Shown: positions 19,667 through 50,741 of the stretch, piece by piece | How the letters are laid out: the number at the start of each line of letters is the position of its first letter | Numbering within the stretch: position 1 is the first letter of the stretch | Source: an uncultured Gammaproteobacteria bacterium | Lineage (GTDB): Bacteria > Patescibacteriota > Patescibacteriia > S139-126 | Direction of reading: 5' to 3' | Length of the DNA stretch: 64,000 nucleotides | Assembly (NCBI GenBank): GCA_964540695.1 | Contig: CAZINS010000001.1 | Coordinates: forward strand, 156,826-220,825 | The notes under the pieces: model-generated | Database searches by the model: none | What the model was told of the DNA's origin: nothing | What the model saw: only the letters and a program-made list of their open reading frames with translations | Translations under genes and position numbers: made by a program

Positions 19667-20429
19667 ATGAATATATTTTTTCTAAATAACTAAAGCTATT
19701 AATTTTTCTCTCAATTATATTTTCTGTATATTTACTTAAAATTTTCATAAACTCAAACTCTTCTTGTTTAGTTATTCTAAAACGATAAACATCTGGTAAG
19801 ACTTGCCAAAAATTCCCTCTGTATAAATAACGTAATATTTTCAAAATATTTAGAGATAATATTAAATCAGAATTAATAGCCTTATCTTTTTTTATTACTC
19901 CACCTTCAGTCACTGAAAAAAAACAATTTTCTGCTAATAATTTTTGACCACTCCGCACACACTCCTTAAGTTGAGGTTTAAATCCAATCAATGATACAAA
20001 CTGCCAAATAACTAAATATACAATTAACTTATTTCTATTTACATTTGGTTTTAAATTTTTTTGTAAAAACTTTGCCCAATTTATTAATAATTCATAAACT
20101 TCATCTTCTGTATTATCTGGGACAGTTGAAAAATTAACTACTTCCAACAATGCCTGCCACAATAATAATGCTTCTAAATTCTGACGAATTAAAAAATGAC
20201 TATCAACCGTTTCCCCACCAGCCACATGAATTTGGTTTTTACCTGGTGCCAACATTATCTTTACTTCATTGCCAACTTCCAAAAAACCTCTTAACTTTGC
20301 CTGTGGTTTTCTCGCTCCCTTGGCTTTGGCAATAATTTTTCCTTTTTCTCTAGTAAAAGCTGTTATCAATAAATCATTTTCACCTTTAGGCTGATGACGT
20401 AAGATAATCGCTTGTAAAATTACTGTCAT
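19635..20429 (-). CDS. recO: DNA repair protein RecO
   Basis: 264 aa, N-terminal OB-fold region MTVILQAIILRHQPKGENDLLITAFTREKGKI typical of RecO; placement next to ileS. Confidence 0.6.
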   Translation of the reverse strand: MTVILQAIILRHQPKGENDLLITAFTREKGKIIAKAKGARKPQAKLRGFLEVGNEVKIMLAPGKNQIHVAGGETVDSHFLIRQNLEALLLWQALLEVVNFSTVPDNTEDEVYELLINWAKFLQKNLKPNVNRNKLIVYLVIWQFVSLIGFKPQLKECVRSGQKLLAENCFFSVTEGGVIKKDKAINSDLILSLNILKILRYLYRGNFWQVLPDVYRFRITKQEEFEFMKILSKYTENIIERKINSFSYLEKIYSYGNKVLARVK

Positions 20430-23425
20430 GTTTTTTCAATACCCAACCAAATTTTTTCCTCAGCAAATTTTATTTCTTTGCTGTCTAAATTATCCTTATG
20501 TGCAAATACTATTTGTTTACTTAAAGTAGAGCTATTAATCATCTCTTCTACTTCTGCAATTGACTGTTCTAACTGATTGGAAACATCTATGTATAAAATA
20601 ATCTTATCCGTAATAGTCAAACCCGCTTGTTTACGTAAATTATTGACAGTTCTAACCAATTCTCTCACCAAACCTGCTTTAGCTAAATTTTCATCAATCG
20701 TAGTATTTAATTTTATTTCACTAGCACCCAAACTAACATTAATTACATTTACCTCTTGTCGCAAAATTTCAAGATATTGTTCAGAAAAATCTTTTTGTTT
20801 AATAAACAACTCTGCCAATGGTTGCCTAACTTTTATTTTAGCTTCCGCCCGTAAAGCTAAAGCTTGGGTAACAATATCTCTTACTTGATTCATGGTCTGT
20901 AACATTTCAGTTTCAGCCGCGGTTTTTTCATTGACTTGCGGCCAAGCAGATAAATGGACTGAAAAAGCAAATTCGTTTTCTTTAACTGGACAATCTTTTA
21001 TTAATTCTTGATAAATTTTTTCTGCTAAAAATGGTGTAAAAGGTGCTAATAATTTAGTTAATTCCAATAACACAAATCCTAATGTTTTTACAGCTTGTGC
21101 TTGTGTTTCTCCACCAGCTTTAAAACGATCACGACTGCGTCTCACATACCAAGTAGATAAATCATTGATAAAATCAGATAACATTCTCGCCGCAGATGTA
21201 ATATCATAATTATCTAAATAATTGGTGACAATTCTTGTTACCTCTCGTAAATAAGTTAATATCCACTGATCCAAAAGATCTGGAGAAGGTTCAGTTGGCA
21301 CTGTTTTTACAGCCGGCTTATATAGACTGTAGAAACTAAAAACATTCCATAAAATTAACCAGTTTTTTTTCAATACTTCTTCAACTTGTTGTGGGTCAAA
21401 GTTTTTTGGTTCACCTGGTTGATTGATTGTATAAAAATGCCAACGCAGTGCATCTGCACCATAAGAATTCATAATTTCCCATGGATCAACAATATTCCCC
21501 TTGCTTTTAGACATTTTCTTACCGTGTTTATCATTTATATGTCCTAAACAAATCACATTTTTATAAGGACTTTCCTGATCAAGTAAAGTGGCAACAGCCA
21601 GTAAAGTATAAAACCAACCACGGGTTTGATCGATGGCTTCACAAATAAAATCAGCTGGATACCATTTTTTATTATCAATCAAATCTTTATTGTCAAAAGG
21701 ATAATGAATTTGAGCAAATGGCATAGCCCCAGAGTCAAACCAACAATCAAGTACTGCAGTGTCTCGTACCATTTCCCCACCACACTGATCACATTTTATT
21801 TTAATATCATCAACAAAAGGACGATGAGCATCGGTAATTTTTTGTCCACTCAATTTTTCTAACTCGTCAAACGAACCAATTACTTTGATACTTCTGCATT
21901 CTACTTGATTCTTAATTCTCAATTCTTTATTCTGATTGGCTTGGCACTTCCAAATTGGCAATGGCGTTCCCCAATACCGTTCCCGGGATATGGCCCAATC
22001 CTTAACCCCCTCTAACCATTCACCAAACCGACCAAATTTAATATGATCAGGTAGCCAATTAATATTTTGATTATTTGTTTTTAACTGTTCACGTAACGAA
22101 GACATTTTAATAAACCAAGAATCCTTAGCATAATATAAAAGCGGAGTATCGCAACGCCAACAAAATGGGTAATCATGCTGATAAGACTCTTGACCAAACA
22201 ATAATTTTTGTTCTTGTAAATAATTAATAATTATTTTTTCTGTCTCAGAATCTTTGACAAATCTGTTTTGTAAAATTTCTAGAATCTTAAATTTTGAATT
22301 TTGAATCTGAAAAGAAAAATTACCGTTTTCATTGACTGTATGTACTTTGGGTAGTCCCACTGCTTCACCTAAGTTATAATCATCCTCACCATACATTACT
22401 GCTGTGTGTACTACTCCTGTACCATCCTCAGTAGTAACAAAATCAGCTGGATATATTTTATATGCATTTTTATAATTCTCTACTGTTTCTGAAATCGCAC
22501 CCGGAAATAGAGGTTCATATTCTACTCCAACCAATTCACTACCTTTAAACTCTTCTAAAATCTCAAACTCAGTCTGACCTAATATATTCAATCTCGCTTT
22601 GGCAATAATCAAATCTTCCTTAATTCTTAATTCGTCATTCTTAATTCTAATTTTGACATAGTCAAAATCATTACCGATTGCCAAAGCCACATTACCCGGT
22701 AAGGTCCAAGGAGTAGTTGTCCAAGAAAGAATATAGAGCGGAACATCACTATTATCTTCACCTTTAATTCTTACTTCGTCATTCTTAATTCTGAATTTTA
22801 TATAAACAGATTCATCCTTAACCTCCCGATACCCTTGAGCGACTTCATGGCTAGAAAGAGCGGTGCCACAACGTGGACAATGTGGAACTACTTTATGACC
22901 CAAATATAATAATTGTTTATCATGAACCTGTTTGATTATCCACCACAACGTTTCAATATAATCATTGGTATAAGTTATATAGGGTTTATCCATATCAATC
23001 CAAAAACCCATTCTCCTGGTCAATTTTTCCCATTCTTCTTTATATTGCCAAACTGATTCCTGACACTTGGCATTAAAAAACTTTATTGACTCAGCTACTG
23101 AACTTTGTAAAGCTTCAATTTGTGGTTTACCTGATATTCCTAAATGCTTTTCCACCGCTAGCTCCACTGGCAAACCATGAGTATCCCATCCTGCTTTTCT
23201 ATTTACATGAAAACCTTGCATGGTTTTATAACGAGGTATCAAATCTTTAAATGCTCGAGCCAAGACATGATGAATACCAGGACGACCGTTGGCAGTTGGT
23301 GGGCCTTCATAAAATACAAACTCACCCTTAGGAGAATCTTTCTCCAGGGACTTAGTAAATATTTTTTCTTTTTCCCAAAATTCTAAAATTTCTTGTTCTA
23401 ATTCGGGAAAATTTATTTGAGTCAT
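20426..23425 (-). CDS. ileS: Isoleucyl-tRNA synthetase
   Basis: Class I HIGH-like PTANGRPGIHH, KMSKS, WTTTPWTLP editing-domain motif, zinc-knuckle Cys pairs. ATG start MTQINFPELEQ at 23423-23425 preferred over the TTG at 23476 used by the ORF track. Confidence 0.9.
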   Translation of the reverse strand: MTQINFPELEQEILEFWEKEKIFTKSLEKDSPKGEFVFYEGPPTANGRPGIHHVLARAFKDLIPRYKTMQGFHVNRKAGWDTHGLPVELAVEKHLGISGKPQIEALQSSVAESIKFFNAKCQESVWQYKEEWEKLTRRMGFWIDMDKPYITYTNDYIETLWWIIKQVHDKQLLYLGHKVVPHCPRCGTALSSHEVAQGYREVKDESVYIKFRIKNDEVRIKGEDNSDVPLYILSWTTTPWTLPGNVALAIGNDFDYVKIRIKNDELRIKEDLIIAKARLNILGQTEFEILEEFKGSELVGVEYEPLFPGAISETVENYKNAYKIYPADFVTTEDGTGVVHTAVMYGEDDYNLGEAVGLPKVHTVNENGNFSFQIQNSKFKILEILQNRFVKDSETEKIIINYLQEQKLLFGQESYQHDYPFCWRCDTPLLYYAKDSWFIKMSSLREQLKTNNQNINWLPDHIKFGRFGEWLEGVKDWAISRERYWGTPLPIWKCQANQNKELRIKNQVECRSIKVIGSFDELEKLSGQKITDAHRPFVDDIKIKCDQCGGEMVRDTAVLDCWFDSGAMPFAQIHYPFDNKDLIDNKKWYPADFICEAIDQTRGWFYTLLAVATLLDQESPYKNVICLGHINDKHGKKMSKSKGNIVDPWEIMNSYGADALRWHFYTINQPGEPKNFDPQQVEEVLKKNWLILWNVFSFYSLYKPAVKTVPTEPSPDLLDQWILTYLREVTRIVTNYLDNYDITSAARMLSDFINDLSTWYVRRSRDRFKAGGETQAQAVKTLGFVLLELTKLLAPFTPFLAEKIYQELIKDCPVKENEFAFSVHLSAWPQVNEKTAAETEMLQTMNQVRDIVTQALALRAEAKIKVRQPLAELFIKQKDFSEQYLEILRQEVNVINVSLGASEIKLNTTIDENLAKAGLVRELVRTVNNLRKQAGLTITDKIILYIDVSNQLEQSIAEVEEMINSSTLSKQIVFAHKDNLDSKEIKFAEEKIWLGIEKT

Positions 23426-26293: not shown

Positions 26294-26740
26294 ATGGAAA
26301 TATTAACCAACAAACAAGCTTTATTCAATTATCTACCTTTACAAAAAATAGAGGCGGGGCTTGTTTTGACCGGGCCGGAAGTAAAATCAGTTAAAATGAA
26401 AAGAGTTGATTTTAAAGGTAGTTATGTGACTATCAAAGATAATCATGCCTGGCTGGTAGGACTACATGTTGCCCCATATCAACCAGCTGGTGGTGTACAA
26501 AAAAACTATGAACCAAAAAGACAAAGAAAACTACTTTTAACTAAAAAAGAAATTAATCTCATCCGGGGACAACTGACCAATAAAGGATTGACAGTTGTCC
26601 CTTTGCGGCTATATACTACCAGGGGTCTGGTGAAACTGGAACTAGCAATAGTCCGTGGTAAAAAACAATTTGATAAAAAAGAAACAATAAAAAAAAGAGA
26701 TACCGACCGCGATATCAGACGCACTTTGAAAGAATACTAG
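26294..26740 (+). CDS. smpB: SsrA-binding protein SmpB
   Basis: MEILTNKQALFNYLPLQKIEAGLVLTGPEVKSVK...matches the SmpB fold; basic C-terminal tail. The ORF-track start 26225 adds 23 non-conserved residues, so the internal ATG is preferred. Lies directly upstream of tmRNA. Confidence 0.8.
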   Translation: MEILTNKQALFNYLPLQKIEAGLVLTGPEVKSVKMKRVDFKGSYVTIKDNHAWLVGLHVAPYQPAGGVQKNYEPKRQRKLLLTKKEINLIRGQLTNKGLTVVPLRLYTTRGLVKLELAIVRGKKQFDKKETIKKRDTDRDIRRTLKEY

Positions 26741-26744
26741 CTTA

Positions 26745-26760
26745 ATTACTAATTAGTAAT
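26745..26760. repeat. Perfect 16 bp palindrome ATTACTAATTAGTAAT, 5 bp after the smpB stop
   Basis: Self-complementary on inspection; possible protein-binding site between smpB and ssrA. Confidence 0.5.
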
Positions 26761-26769
26761 GACTAATAT

Positions 26770-26840
26770 CTAATGAATTTTCTAATTAGTTAATTAATAA
26801 ATTAAATCATTTATTAATAATTAGTTATTAGTAATTTTAT
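26770..26840 (+). repeat. AT-rich direct repeat copy A (partner at 28669-28737)
   Basis: ctaatgaatt...ttaaatcatttattaataattagttattagtaattttat aligns at about 85 percent identity with the copy downstream of rplT. Confidence 0.6.
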
Positions 26841-26842
26841 CC

Positions 26843-27218
26843 GGGGATGTCATCTATTCGCTAAGAAAGTAGAGACGTATGTTCAAGCTGAGCGGCAACT
26901 CATTAAACTACCACAACTATAAGTGCCAATACACTTATGAGCAAAATTAGGAACGCTTTTGCGCTACCTAACTTTGCACTTGCTGTTGCCTAATTAGGCC
27001 ACAGCCATCGCTGAAGTCTGGCTCCAAGATTTCTTAAGCGGTGTCATAACTGGAGCTTGAACGCCGATACGCTGACTATTGTCGTTTGAAATATTGCTCA
27101 GCACCACCAAAAAGTTTTCGCCTGATTTTATCTTTTTGGTTTACCAATCAGGCTAAGTTTGTAAATCATGCGTTAAAACTTTTTTACCACGTGGGTGCAA
27201 AGCCCACCATCTCCACCA
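26843..27218 (+). ncRNA. ssrA: tmRNA (SsrA), one-piece
   Basis: 5' GGGGAUG pairs with 3' CAUCUCC, including a G3:U wobble (alanine identity element). T-arm GUGGG-UGCAAAG-CCCAC, discriminator A, encoded CCA at 27216-27218. Internal tag ORF ends ...PNFALAVA-UAA at 26991-26993. Immediately downstream of smpB. Confidence 0.8.
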
Positions 27219-27379
27219 AACTAAGCTTGGTAATTGGGGAGCTTAACTTCCCACCATCAAATTTTTAATTTTATAATTTTTAATTTTATAATTTTTAAAC
27301 TACTCTTCATATATAAGTACTCTGGCCACAAATACTTAAATTTTATATAATATAATTATAATCATTAACCCTCAAATTT

Positions 27380-27886
27380 ATTCAAAAATTTAGAATCAAT
27401 CAACAAATAAACCTACCAGAAGTCCGTCTAGTAGGAGCCGACGGAGAACAGTTAGGCGTAGTTTCTACGGTAGAAGCCCTACGTCAAGCCAGAGAAGCGG
27501 GACTGGATTTGGTTGAAGTATCACCTAAAGCAGAAATACCTGTCTGTCGTATCTTAGACTACGGTCAATGGATTTATAACCAAAATAAGCTACAACAAAA
27601 AGCTAAGGTCAAAAGCAGAAAATCAGAAATTAAAGGAGTAAGACTTACTTACAATATGGGAAGCCACGACTTAGAAGTCAGAGCCAACCAGGCAAGTAAA
27701 TTTTTAAATCAAGGCGATCGAGTCAAAACTGAAATTATTCTTAAAGGTAGACAAAAGGCTCATCCTGAAAAAGTAAAAGAAATAATGATGAAATTTCAAT
27801 CTATGCTTGGTACAAATATTAGAGTGGACCAAGAACCTACACGCGAAAGCAATAAATTTACAGCCCTTTACTCCTTAAAAAAATAA
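27380..27886 (+). CDS. infC: Translation initiation factor IF-3, probable AUU start
   Basis: Upstream of the ORF-track segment the frame stays open to a TAA at 27359-27361 and encodes the conserved IF3 N-terminus INQQINLPEVRLVGADGEQLGVVSTVEALRQAREAGLDLVEV. No in-frame ATG exists, so the in-frame ATT at 27380 matches the AUU start known for infC. Confidence 0.7.
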   Translation: MQKFRINQQINLPEVRLVGADGEQLGVVSTVEALRQAREAGLDLVEVSPKAEIPVCRILDYGQWIYNQNKLQQKAKVKSRKSEIKGVRLTYNMGSHDLEVRANQASKFLNQGDRVKTEIILKGRQKAHPEKVKEIMMKFQSMLGTNIRVDQEPTRESNKFTALYSLKK

Positions 27887-27971: not shown

Positions 27972-28169
27972 ATGCCAAAATTAAAAACACACAAAACAAC
28001 CAATAAGAGAATTAGAGTAAGTAAGAATAAAAAACTGACCCAAAGAACTTCCGGTCAGGATCATTTTAATTCCAGAGAAACTGGCAAAGTAACTCGCAAT
28101 AAAAGACGTGACCATAAAGTAGCCAAGGTAAACGAAAAAAACATTCGCACTCTCCTACCTTATCATTAA
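27972..28169 (+). CDS. rpmI: 50S ribosomal protein L35
   Basis: MPKLKTHKTTNKRIRVSKNKK...65 aa, highly basic, canonical L35 start. Confidence 0.85.
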   Translation: MPKLKTHKTTNKRIRVSKNKKLTQRTSGQDHFNSRETGKVTRNKRRDHKVAKVNEKNIRTLLPYH

Positions 28170-28208
28170 TATCTTAATTCTTAATTCTAGATTCTAAATT
28201 CTAATCAT

Positions 28209-28610: not shown

Positions 28611-28668
28611 ATAACCAATTTCCAAGAAACAAGATACTAATAAATTATTAATTTCTAATAACTAATTA

Positions 28669-28737
28669 CTAATGAATTACTAATTATTAAATTAAATCAT
28701 TGATTAATAATTAATAATTAGTTATTAGTAATTTTAT
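28669..28737 (+). repeat. AT-rich direct repeat copy B (partner at 26770-26840)
   Basis: ctaatgaatt...ttaaatcattgattaataattaataattagttattagtaattttat. Confidence 0.6.
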
Positions 28738-29151
28738 GTTCTAATAAATACAATCTTATTATTCAAACATCCAAACTTTTAACAGCTAAAAACAAATCAA
28801 CTATTCCCCCACAACCTTACCCGGTTTTCACTTCTTCTATTACTATAATTCAAATTAAGTCCACGTAAATTTATCGGCTGAATATTTTTCTTATTTCTTT
28901 TCCAAGTAAAAATATTTTGTTTTTTTTCTGACATAAAAATTATTTAAGTTATTTAAACTTAAAATAAAAAGCAGTACGCGCTTAGCGTACTACCCTAATT
29001 TTTATTGCCTGCACTTTATCTTGACAAGATACTTTGATTTTCATATTTTTGTTTTTAATTTTTATTTTTGTGAATTTTATTTAAATTGTTTTATAATTTA
29101 CAATTTTAAATTTATAATTTTTATTACTATATCTTCATTATACAGCATTTT

Positions 29152-49298: not shown

Positions 49299-49501
49299 AA
49301 ATTCACCTCTCTTTCTATATTAGTGAAAATGACTTTTGCCACAGGACAAGCCGCGGTAACAAAAATCATTTTATAGTTAGATTTTTAAATATTATTTAAT
49401 AAATCTAGCATATTTATGCCCGACCTTTTAACTATAAATAATTATAGCACATTTTCAAAAAAACTACAAGTTAAATTATTTCTTAATCAAATACTAAACC
49501 T

Positions 49502-49532
49502 CCTTAATTCTTAATTCGTTATTCTTAATTCT
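49502..49532. repeat. 31 bp heptamer-based repeat element (TTAATTC units), intergenic copy between pilC and the pilin gene
   Basis: ccttaattcttaattcgttattcttaattct is 30/31 identical to 22618-22648 inside ileS. Confidence 0.6.
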
Positions 49533-49535
49533 ATT

Positions 49536-50741
49536 CTAAAAACTACTAGCCAGCTGATACATTGGTAGTATTATAGCTGCCACCATCAGCCCAACCCCCA
49601 CACCCATCAGTACCATAATCAAAGGTTCAATCAAACTCACCATATTGGCCACCAAATTTTCAATTTCTCTGGCATAAAAATCTGTTATTTTTGCTAAAAT
49701 CTGTTCCAGTCTACCAGTTTGTTCCCCGACTGACATCATTTGTGATACCATGGGTGGTACTTCTTTACTTTTTAAAAACAAAGTAGCGACACTATTACCA
49801 TCTTCTACCTCTTTGATGGTTTGTTTGATTAACGAGCTATAGAGGTCATTACCCACCACATCTGCGACCACTTCCAAAGCCGCAGTTAGTGGCACCCCGC
49901 CCACTATCAAGGTGGATAAGGACCTAGTCAGCCGGACCAAATATATCCTTTGCCACAATTTACCAAAAATCGGAACTTTCAATTTCATGCGGTCATACAA
50001 AACCTTACCAGGACCACTTCTTGTCAATTTAAACAGGGTAAAAAACCCGCCACCAACCAAACCTATCAGTATATACCAATAATTTTTCATAAAATCAGAT
50101 ACTAAAATCAAAATCCTGGTAGCTAATGGCAACTCTGCCCCTGATTCGGAAATAATACCAGTCAATTTTGGTACCACAAACACCATCATCACAATACCCA
50201 CTACGGTTAAACCACTTAAAATAAATATAGGATAAATCATGGCACCCTTTATTTTGGAAGTAAGGTCATAATCTTTTTCTTGTTGATCAGCTAAATAATT
50301 TAACACTTCATCCAATTTACCACTGGTTTCACCTGACCTAATCATAGCCACATAAAAATCAGAAAATACTTTACGGTATCTACCCAAAGCTTGAGAAAGT
50401 TTAGCACCACCATCTACTTCATCGGCCACTTCGGAAATTATCACTTTGAGCCTGGGATTATGAGTTTGGTTAACCAAAATTTTAAGAGCCTGCACAATCG
50501 GTACAGAAGCGGAAGCCATCACCGCTAGTTGCCGAGAAAAAACTACGACATCTTTATTTTTTATCCGATTTAAAAATGGTAAATCAATATTTAGTGAACT
50601 TTTTTCTTTTTCTATTAATGACAAAATAATCAAGCCCCGATCAACCAAAATTGATGAAGCTACATTTTCTGAAGGCGCATCAACCGACCCTTGCACTATT
50701 TCACCTCGAGAATTTCTGGCACGGTATTGAAAAAAAGACAT
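49536..50741 (-). CDS. pilC: Type IV pilus assembly platform protein PilC (GspF family)
   Basis: 401 aa, two T2SS-F repeats, 3-4 TM. Confidence 0.85.
   Translation of the reverse strand: MSFFQYRARNSRGEIVQGSVDAPSENVASSILVDRGLIILSLIEKEKSSLNIDLPFLNRIKNKDVVVFSRQLAVMASASVPIVQALKILVNQTHNPRLKVIISEVADEVDGGAKLSQALGRYRKVFSDFYVAMIRSGETSGKLDEVLNYLADQQEKDYDLTSKIKGAMIYPIFILSGLTVVGIVMMVFVVPKLTGIISESGAELPLATRILILVSDFMKNYWYILIGLVGGGFFTLFKLTRSGPGKVLYDRMKLKVPIFGKLWQRIYLVRLTRSLSTLIVGGVPLTAALEVVADVVGNDLYSSLIKQTIKEVEDGNSVATLFLKSKEVPPMVSQMMSVGEQTGRLEQILAKITDFYAREIENLVANMVSLIEPLIMVLMGVGVGLMVAAIILPMYQLASSF

Follow-up and report, generated by a model that had tools for sequence, protein, structure and literature searches.

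Why should the same short sequence occur, almost letter for letter, both in frame inside an essential gene and in non-coding DNA elsewhere on the same contig? We addressed this question in a 64,000-nucleotide (nt) window, that is, the whole stretch of DNA that was analysed (contig CAZINS010000001.1 of assembly GCA_964540695.1, positions 156,826 to 220,825; all positions below are those of the window), from an uncultured bacterium placed by GTDB in the Patescibacteriota. Here ileS, the gene for isoleucyl-tRNA synthetase (IleRS), carries copies of a ~31-nt repeat that is also found between pilC and a pilin gene. A first-pass annotation had proposed that the repeat is either a small mobile or recombinogenic element or a DNA-level motif under selection. 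Beyond what was noted then, we found it to be a tandem heptanucleotide simple-sequence repeat with a stop-removing variant unit, spread far past this genome. We think it probable that the repeat is a frame-independent heptanucleotide microsatellite that originated at the DNA level, is filtered by selection and is to some extent copied between loci; on this best reading it is not a classical mobile element, a promoter site or a selected peptide.

A tandem heptanucleotide repeat with an edited stop codon

In the window (GC ~33%), the 31-mer was found exactly at 22618-22648, with two mismatches at 22762-22792 and with one mismatch at 49502-49532, against 0 expected from 100 shuffled sequences; the 14-mer TTAATTCTTAATTC, with up to one mismatch allowed, occurred at six places against 0.23 expected, among them 21905-21925 and 28174-28187. 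All five copies, the three 31-mers and the two shorter ones, are real and greatly exceed what chance would give, and the 31-mers lie where the first-pass annotation had placed them, save for one boundary: the second ileS copy is real and in frame but begins at 22762, the 32-nt version from 22761 having one extra T. Tandem Repeats Finder (TRF) reported period-7 arrays at 21904-21933, 22619-22652, 28166-28204 and 49503-32 (period-7 rows made up 17 of the 78 TRF rows of the window), and at five of the five sites the period was 7, with 4.3-5.1 copies of a unit repeated head to tail.

Read on the gene strand, the 31-mer is A-GAATTAA-GAATGAC-GAATTAA-GAATTAA-GG, or ~4.4 tandem GAATTAA units. Because 7 is not a multiple of 3, every frame of (GAATTAA)n gives one seven-residue peptide (ELRIKN plus one residue); a perfect (GAATTAA)3 translates codon by codon as GAA TTA AGA ATT AAG AAT TAA, and a perfect array has a TAA in each frame, one per 21 nt. 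This in-frame TAA is the sole obstacle to translation, so coding copies carry one edited codon: the variant unit of the 31-mer coincides precisely with the position expected of that TAA, which is replaced by GAC in ileS and by AAC in the pilC-pilin spacer, and the edited coding arrays read RIKN-x-ELRIK. The window holds five arrays in 64 kb, three of them inside ileS.

The repeat is one of the (GAATNNN)n long simple-sequence repeats (LSSRs), a class known from many bacteria, and every feature by which we tested it as a tandem heptanucleotide LSSR was observed. Besides the head-to-tail units, relatives vary in steps of one unit, as seen in the number and sequence of units in the rpmI-rplT spacer, in a 21-nt indel at ileS site 3 and in the unit-by-unit divergence of the pilC-pilin array. 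The repeat is direct, with palindrome and inverted termini absent; folding of the repeat and of the two ileS copies was unremarkable (z=-1.4), and in a search of the window with Rfam covariance models only the tmRNA and one tRNA reached the gathering score, the repeat being unmatched.

Three array sites in isoleucyl-tRNA synthetase

The ileS product matched P0001 at 100%, contained the Pfam domains tRNA-synt_1, Anticodon_1 and DUF5915, and matched IleRS structures in the PDB with E=5e-248. As had been annotated, two copies in this minus-strand open reading frame (ORF) are in frame and flank WTTTPWTLP, encoding RIKNDEVRIK (amino acids (aa) 212-221) and RIKNDELRIK (aa 260-269), and the third variant noted there, encoding ELRIKN, was located at 21908-21925 (aa 503-508; Table 1). 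In an AlphaFold model of IleRS (mean predicted local distance difference test (pLDDT) score 80), strands 255-263 and 268-275 bracket the site 2 hairpin, site 1 falls where a strand meets a loop, modelled with lower confidence, and a disordered loop (pLDDT <50 at residues 498-507) holds site 3; the array residues were absent from solved IleRS structures in the PDB alignment. As modelled, the arrays occupy what appear to be three tolerant surface elements: the editing-domain entry junction, the hairpin after WTTTPWT and the disordered loop.

Table 1 Arrays and associated features of the window
Feature	Position	Strand	Description
ileS (isoleucyl-tRNA synthetase, 999 aa from MTQ start)	20426..23425	-	ORF; hosts three in-frame heptamer arrays
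ileS site 3 array, AAAGAATTGAGAATTAAGAAT	21904..21931	-	KELRIKN, aa 502-508; within clade-specific 13-aa insertion between two cysteines
ileS site 2 array, AGAATTAAGAATGACGAATTAAGAATTAAGG	22618..22648	-	RIKNDELRIK(E), aa 260-270; beta-hairpin tip after WTTTPWT
ileS site 1 array, AGAATTAAGAATGACGAAGTAAGAATTAAAG	22762..22792	-	RIKNDEVRIK, aa 212-221; strand-loop entry to CP1 editing domain
rpmI-rplT spacer	28170..28208	+	Heptamer units TTAATTC TTAATTC TAGATTC TAAATTC TAATCAT; abuts rplT ATG; no Shine-Dalgarno
Conserved pilin promoter region	49441..49469	-	TTGTAG ... TGCTATAAT extended -10; invariant alignment columns; downstream of array, no overlap
Lineage-specific insertion of ~60 nt	49479..49538	-	Includes pilC stop codon, holds non-coding array; from alignment of PilC-ortholog contigs
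Non-coding array, AGAATTAAGAATAACGAATTAAGAATTAAGG(A)	49502..49533	-	3 nt past pilC stop codon, upstream of pilin gene

For comparison among relatives, we used a graded series of IleRS homologs obtained by protein search and the DNA of four syntenic relatives. L121 and L122 (79-80% aa identity) both carried arrays at all three of these ileS sites, L124 (68% aa identity) had a degenerate site 2 array encoding RIMNNELGIKE, and L123 had no array at the ileS sites. The idea that the encoded peptides are lineage-specific insertions held for site 2, which adds 7 aa relative to the shortest IleRS homologs, and for site 3, which falls in a clade-specific insertion and at which L122 is shorter by exactly 21 nt (three heptamers). 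It did not hold for site 1, where the array and the family consensus KVxKGNxxVK align with no difference in length and where IleRS genes only 42-46% identical to that of the window have an array at the same site.

Some further features of IleRS were observed in passing. The 13-aa clade-specific insertion (aa 494-510; 21890-21950), which contains the ELRIKN array, parts two cysteines that other IleRS have as a CxxC motif. In two distant IleRS (P0034 and P0107), ELRIKN stands directly after the conserved RQPLxEL motif, a fourth IleRS array site, and many Patescibacteria IleRS in the homolog list are fused to His_Phos (PF00300).

The repeat in other genomes, genes and units

A scan of species-representative genomes yielded at least 120 (TTAATTC)n loci (GAATTAA on the other strand), in Cyanobacteria, Bacteroidota, Spirochaetes (Treponema), Clostridia, Patescibacteria and others. 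Among the matches listed, most were perfect (TTAATTC)n, often beside other heptamer arrays, with ~17 perfect units in the longest, and 0 of the 96 perfect-array matches lay in ORFs. A metagenome scan for the bounded 31-mer with its central codon left free gave 124 copies among the matches listed, to which the counts in this paragraph refer. In 59 of the 124, the central codon was TAA and the copy non-coding; 30 fell, with GAATTAA as the sense strand, within ORFs of 150 aa or more and encoded RIKNxELRIK without exception. The central codon was one step from TAA in 21 of the 29 coding groups (22.6% expected, P=1.7e-8), and in two further coding groups the array's TAA serves as the stop codon of the gene. 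Hosts confirmed by Pfam were ValRS, RecR, RF1, UvrC, an amidase, MnmA, a class-V aminotransferase, an ATP-dependent DNA ligase, RmlD and a Glu/Leu dehydrogenase, with LeuRS, other IleRS and CCA-adding-enzyme hosts recognised by conserved motifs, PDB alignment and cluster names; the named hosts of the in-frame, stop-edited 31-mer were Patescibacteria.

In genomes outside the Candidate Phyla Radiation (CPR), in-ORF arrays were only apparent in this sample, the two copies concerned lying at gene edges. Both are from Bacteroidota: in L031:1836-3098 the array immediately precedes the start codon of an ORF that we took by eye for peptidase T, and in L025:2-745 it forms the C-terminal tail of the ORF.

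The array in LeuRS aligns without gaps to the hairpin of the Thermus thermophilus enzyme (PVEGKEVRIP versus RIKNEELRIK), which points to an equal-length overwrite of the native hairpin, not an insertion. In a set of 120 LeuRS homologs selected for protein similarity, the hairpin was often periodic over seven residues (for example, GIRNQESGIR, RIQNSEFRIP and SIFNFQFSID), and the DNA predicted for such other units was confirmed: the LeuRS hairpin of L250, a Patescibacteria genome of 49% GC, consists of four perfect in-frame GAATCAG units, and that of L251 is a degenerate GAATNNN array (GAATTTA/GAATCCA units among lineages). That units differ at one hairpin speaks for a process that makes 7-nt periodicity and against the recognition of any single sequence. 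In-array identity at the LeuRS and other metagenome loci was forced by the exact-match scan, leaving positions and flanks as the informative features, and the LeuRS loci were dropped as a second conservation test because their array identity was guaranteed by how they were found.

Three LeuRS observations stand on their own. The L250 gene lies at L250:201-2672, and its GAATCAG hairpin codons (GIRNQESGIR) precede VFTTRPDT, where other lineages have GAATTAA; one LeuRS (P0269) has two RIKNxELRIK arrays, at aa 267 and 828; and many Patescibacteria LeuRS in the homolog list are fused to NUDIX (PF00293), Ham1 (PF01725) or alpha/beta hydrolases.

Sequence identity at the level of DNA or protein

The relatives used for the ileS codon-conservation test had been picked by protein homology, and the test is hence unbiased. 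Identical codons accounted for 15/17 to 19/22 of those in the ileS arrays, versus 0.58-0.63 over the rest of the gene (P=0.006-0.02). Lysine in the arrays is encoded by AAG, against a genome in which 81-84% of Lys codons are AAA; codon context was rejected as the explanation, given that Lys before AAT is AAG in 6 of 86 cases (7%), three of those six being the arrays themselves. Array codons that oppose codon bias, together with conserved synonymous sites, indicate that the heptamer register is kept at synonymous positions. A relaxed peptide pattern was also searched for in 710,000 ORF residues, and each match was encoded by a near-exact array. These results support the view that the identity of the repeat is determined in the DNA and not through the peptide.

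The converse, that RIKNxELRIK was favoured as a basic beta-hairpin or nucleic-acid contact and that the DNA identity followed from AT-rich codon preference, is in our assessment very unlikely. AGA, ATT, AAT, GAA and TTA are this genome's preferred codons, the arrays occupy hairpins, loops or helices of their hosts whose native pattern is similar, and many of the host proteins bind tRNA or DNA, all of which a selected peptide would lead one to expect. It would not, however, lead one to expect the AAG lysine codons described above, a free central codon enriched for one-step neighbours of TAA and not for turn-forming residues, non-coding copies 30-32 nt identical to coding copies, or a peptide that was not seen in an alternative-codon copy in the 710,000 residues; by a rough calculation with independent codon choice, the chance of the exact 31-mer is near 1e-15 per site.

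Non-coding copies and possible regulatory functions

The intergenic copy upstream of the pilin gene was recovered as annotated, with a single mismatch to the first ileS copy. Its suggested coincidence with a promoter was not borne out. The TGCTATAAT promoter is invariant in six relatives, of which three lack the array and one has a decayed one; the promoter hexamers are not overlapped by the array (a promoter-like prediction fell at 49458-49431), and a role for this copy as part of the pilin promoter or as a transcription-factor site was rejected on these grounds. The ~60-nt insertion between the pilC stop codon and the promoter has diverged in L125 and L126 and is absent in L127, L128 and L129, and array decay amounted to ~6/31 positions in a relative with 98% identical PilC. 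Copying of an ileS fragment into the pilC-pilin spacer was likewise rejected: alignments of the flanks against shuffles gave p<0.05 in 2 of 36 tests, the level of chance. The absence of flank homology indicates that larger fragments were not copied and that homology is confined to the array.

The shorter copy reported between rpmI and rplT (28174-28187) is real and forms part of a five-unit array that fills the entire 39-nt spacer and that is present in 5/5 relatives, with unit number and sequence variable. The non-coding copies in the pilC-pilin and rpmI-rplT spacers are ordinary members of the same heptamer class, with a regulatory role that is putative at most.

These spacers bear on a further explanation, in which the arrays are functional nucleic-acid motifs, that is, sites for a protein that reads a 7-nt repeat (cold-shock- or S1-like on RNA, a nucleoid protein on DNA), kept even in coding DNA and linking translation genes in a regulatory network. 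Such a function would be consistent with the conservation of synonymous positions in the ileS arrays counter to codon bias, with an rpmI-rplT array that runs up to the ATG, lacks a Shine-Dalgarno sequence and is found in 5/5 relatives, and with an identical copy that adjoins a tRNA-Ser gene, 5 nt from its 5' end (see below); translational regulation has been proposed for TAACTGA arrays located just upstream of start codons, including those of ribosomal-protein operons (MacGregor 2015, PMC4679880). However, the LeuRS hairpin units differ by lineage (GAATTAA, GAATCAG, GAATTTA/GAATCCA) with no one sequence conserved, the pilC-pilin array is missing in relatives that keep the promoter and decayed in the relative with near-identical PilC, just five arrays occur in 64 kb, and RNA structure and a matching Rfam family are absent. 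We judge a functional motif unlikely.

Possible copying between loci

Among the 124 metagenome copies listed, the AAC central-codon variant occurred once, in L133. It is common to ileS site 1 of L122 (AGAATTAAGAATAACGAATTAAGAATTAAGG, 31/31 identical to the window's pilC-pilin intergenic copy), to that intergenic copy itself and to a tRNA-Ser leader in L133 (L133:6300-6425), where 5 nt separate the 5' end of tRNA-Ser(cga) from a 32-nt copy that is 32/32 identical to the window spacer copy. L133 is from the same metagenome assembly as the window's close relatives and has similar GC. That so rare a variant should stand at loci of both kinds, coding and non-coding, suggests that arrays undergo ectopic gene conversion; dispersed arrays may, to judge from sequence, be copied by recombination.

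The first-pass proposal is upheld to this extent, in that the identity is at the DNA level and the sharing of AAC suggests copying, but the discrete mobile element that it envisaged did not withstand comparison. A very small mobile element, surviving where it is in frame (compare the cyanobacterial small dispersed repeats and Rickettsia palindromic elements), could explain why 31-32-nt copies are identical at unrelated loci, why several loci of one lineage have the rare AAC variant in common, why the same bounded 31-mer recurs in many genes of several Patescibacteria lineages, why the pilC-pilin copy sits within a lineage-specific insertion and why sites 2 and 3 add 7 aa. Yet inverted termini, a hairpin and target-site duplications were absent and flank homology was at chance; the LeuRS and ileS site 1 arrays have the same length as the ancestral segment; positions are stable across ~20% protein divergence; a single gene holds three of the window's five copies; and other unit sequences show the same behaviour. 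The bounded 31-mer was also unmatched in 2.9 million viral contigs, a result that led us to reject a phage-borne element. A mobile element is quite unlikely in our view.

Proposed spread and maintenance of the arrays

A heptanucleotide microsatellite would account for the anatomy, frame logic, stop editing, age and synonymous-site conservation that we observed and for the recurrence of the repeat in other genes and with other units. We infer the molecular mechanism of its spread and homogenisation, including equal-length overwriting, as follows. The arrays would have originated by replication slippage, with slipped or misaligned replication and repair spreading the 7-nt period over adjoining sequence; gene conversion between dispersed ~31-nt arrays could then homogenise the heptamer register; selection would remove copies that have a stop codon or stand in intolerant places; and RIKNxELRIK may suit strand-turn-strand or loop positions, where coding copies could persist.

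Several points weigh against this microsatellite reading. The spreading and homogenising process would be seen here only through its products. Slippage by 7 nt would frameshift an essential gene, and equal-length overwriting needs a more elaborate event. The unbiased conservation test covers ileS in three related genomes, and the conservation of synonymous register over ~20% protein divergence could reflect purifying selection on a nucleic-acid function. L133 shares only arrays with the window, and its membership of the window's lineage is not proven; finally, counts within the source genome are those of the 64-kb window, with no genome-wide figure.

A wider generalisation is possible, though we hold it doubtful: Patescibacteria may be subject to systematic, in-frame overwriting by (GAATNNN)n of hairpins, loops and helices on the surface of essential enzymes (class I aminoacyl-tRNA synthetases, where the editing domain is entered, RF1, RecR, UvrC and the CCA-adding enzyme), with the register actively maintained either through repair or recombination that homogenises the arrays in a way so far unrecognised or by a factor that reads 7 nt. 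If true, this would be a previously undescribed, frame-independent and repeat-driven mode of protein-sequence evolution. 

Apart from this generalisation, IleRS and LeuRS lineages that are less than 50% identical have the array at one and the same structural hairpin, with units that differ by lineage, a concrete case of how a DNA-level repeat process can write protein sequence independently of the reading frame. The process explains part of the lineage-specific loop sequences in CPR proteins; RIKNxELRIK-type peptides are repeat-derived and should not be taken as homology signals or functional motifs. Should the synonymous conservation reflect selection, these hard-to-study organisms would be expected to have a heptamer-reading factor that is as yet unknown.

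Other repeats and genes nearby

Two AT-rich imperfect palindromes of ~100 bp (26740-26836 and 28635-28740; ~85% identical) have heptamer-phased units (TAATTAC, TAATTAG, TAATGAC and similar) and make up a second 7-nt-phased repeat family; smpB and the tmRNA gene flank one of them, and the other comes after the rplT terminator. Between the tmRNA gene (26843-27218) and infC there is a perfect tandem 15-mer, AATTTTTAATTTTAT, in 2.6 copies (27260-27298). At 27380-27510, the IF3 frame extends upstream of the first canonical start (TTG, 27509) as ...INQQINLPEVRLVGADGEQ. Called infC products of relatives are 135-154 aa long versus 125 aa in the window. Non-canonical infC start codons are known in other bacteria, and the gene in the window probably starts at such a codon.

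Relation to known repeat systems

Known repeats resemble the window arrays in different respects. Rickettsia palindromic elements, reportedly described by Ogata and colleagues in 2000 as in-frame selfish DNA in protein-coding genes, are likewise repeated DNA that stands in frame in housekeeping genes of a reduced genome and is tolerated at the protein surface. These elements are discussed in PMC1779305 and PMC10969869. They are ~100-150 bp long, palindromic and true insertions, whereas the window arrays are 21-31 nt long, direct and tandem, and often replace sequence of equal length. Of the features that characterise MITEs (miniature inverted-repeat transposable elements) and Rickettsia palindromic elements, we found in-frame occurrence in housekeeping genes, and found neither inverted repeats or a palindrome nor insertion with target duplication. 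Small dispersed repeats of Nostoc, the subject of work by Elhai and colleagues in 2008 that is cited in PMC3116915, are just 21-27 nt long and have no known mobility mechanism. They are reported to share a hairpin and to be associated with tandem heptamer repeats; compared by description only, their sequences differ from those of the window arrays, in which a hairpin was not seen. Ohno is said to have proposed coding sequences made of oligomer repeats, with a unit not divisible by three, for primordial genes: as in that scheme, all frames of the present arrays give one periodic peptide and are robust to phase, but here the repeat is a present-day microsatellite within modern enzymes. A DNA uptake sequence, which would be a lineage-specific motif at about one per kb, was rejected in view of five arrays in 64 kb and a unit present in many phyla.

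Literature searches, whose coverage was incomplete, returned no account of stop-edited heptamer arrays inside conserved enzyme cores, and searches on the peptide strings and unit sequences found nothing relevant. The direct heptamer repeats with the unit TAACTGA that are found in Beggiatoaceae, Cyanobacteria and Bacteroidetes (MacGregor 2015, PMC4679880) are similar in having a stop codon in each frame on one strand and in occurring occasionally in ORFs, and the rpmI-rplT array, like them, abuts a start codon in a ribosomal-protein operon without a Shine-Dalgarno sequence. They differ in their unit and in that their ORF cases are mostly protein ends or hypothetical proteins and not the conserved cores of aminoacyl-tRNA synthetases, with no stop editing described (PMC4679880).

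The closest likeness is to the LSSRs with 7-nt units, including the heptameric short tandemly repeated repetitive (STRR) sequences of cyanobacteria, which have been proposed to originate by polymerase slippage (Mrazek et al. 2007, as presented in PMC4679880; PMC4692102). As far as the passages of these papers that treat such repeats describe them, they share with the arrays head-to-tail 7-nt units, a mostly intergenic location, variation in unit number and sequence between relatives, and a scattered distribution over phyla, with many in Cyanobacteria and Bacteroidota. Heptamers have been known in bacteria mainly as intergenic curiosities, and surveys, in the portions relayed by PMC4679880 and PMC4692102, expect repeats in coding DNA to have units that are multiples of three. 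Unlike the LSSRs portrayed there, the short arrays of this window stand in frame in conserved domains of essential genes and persist across species: a 7-nt repeat, stop-edited and translated inside the conserved cores of essential enzymes.

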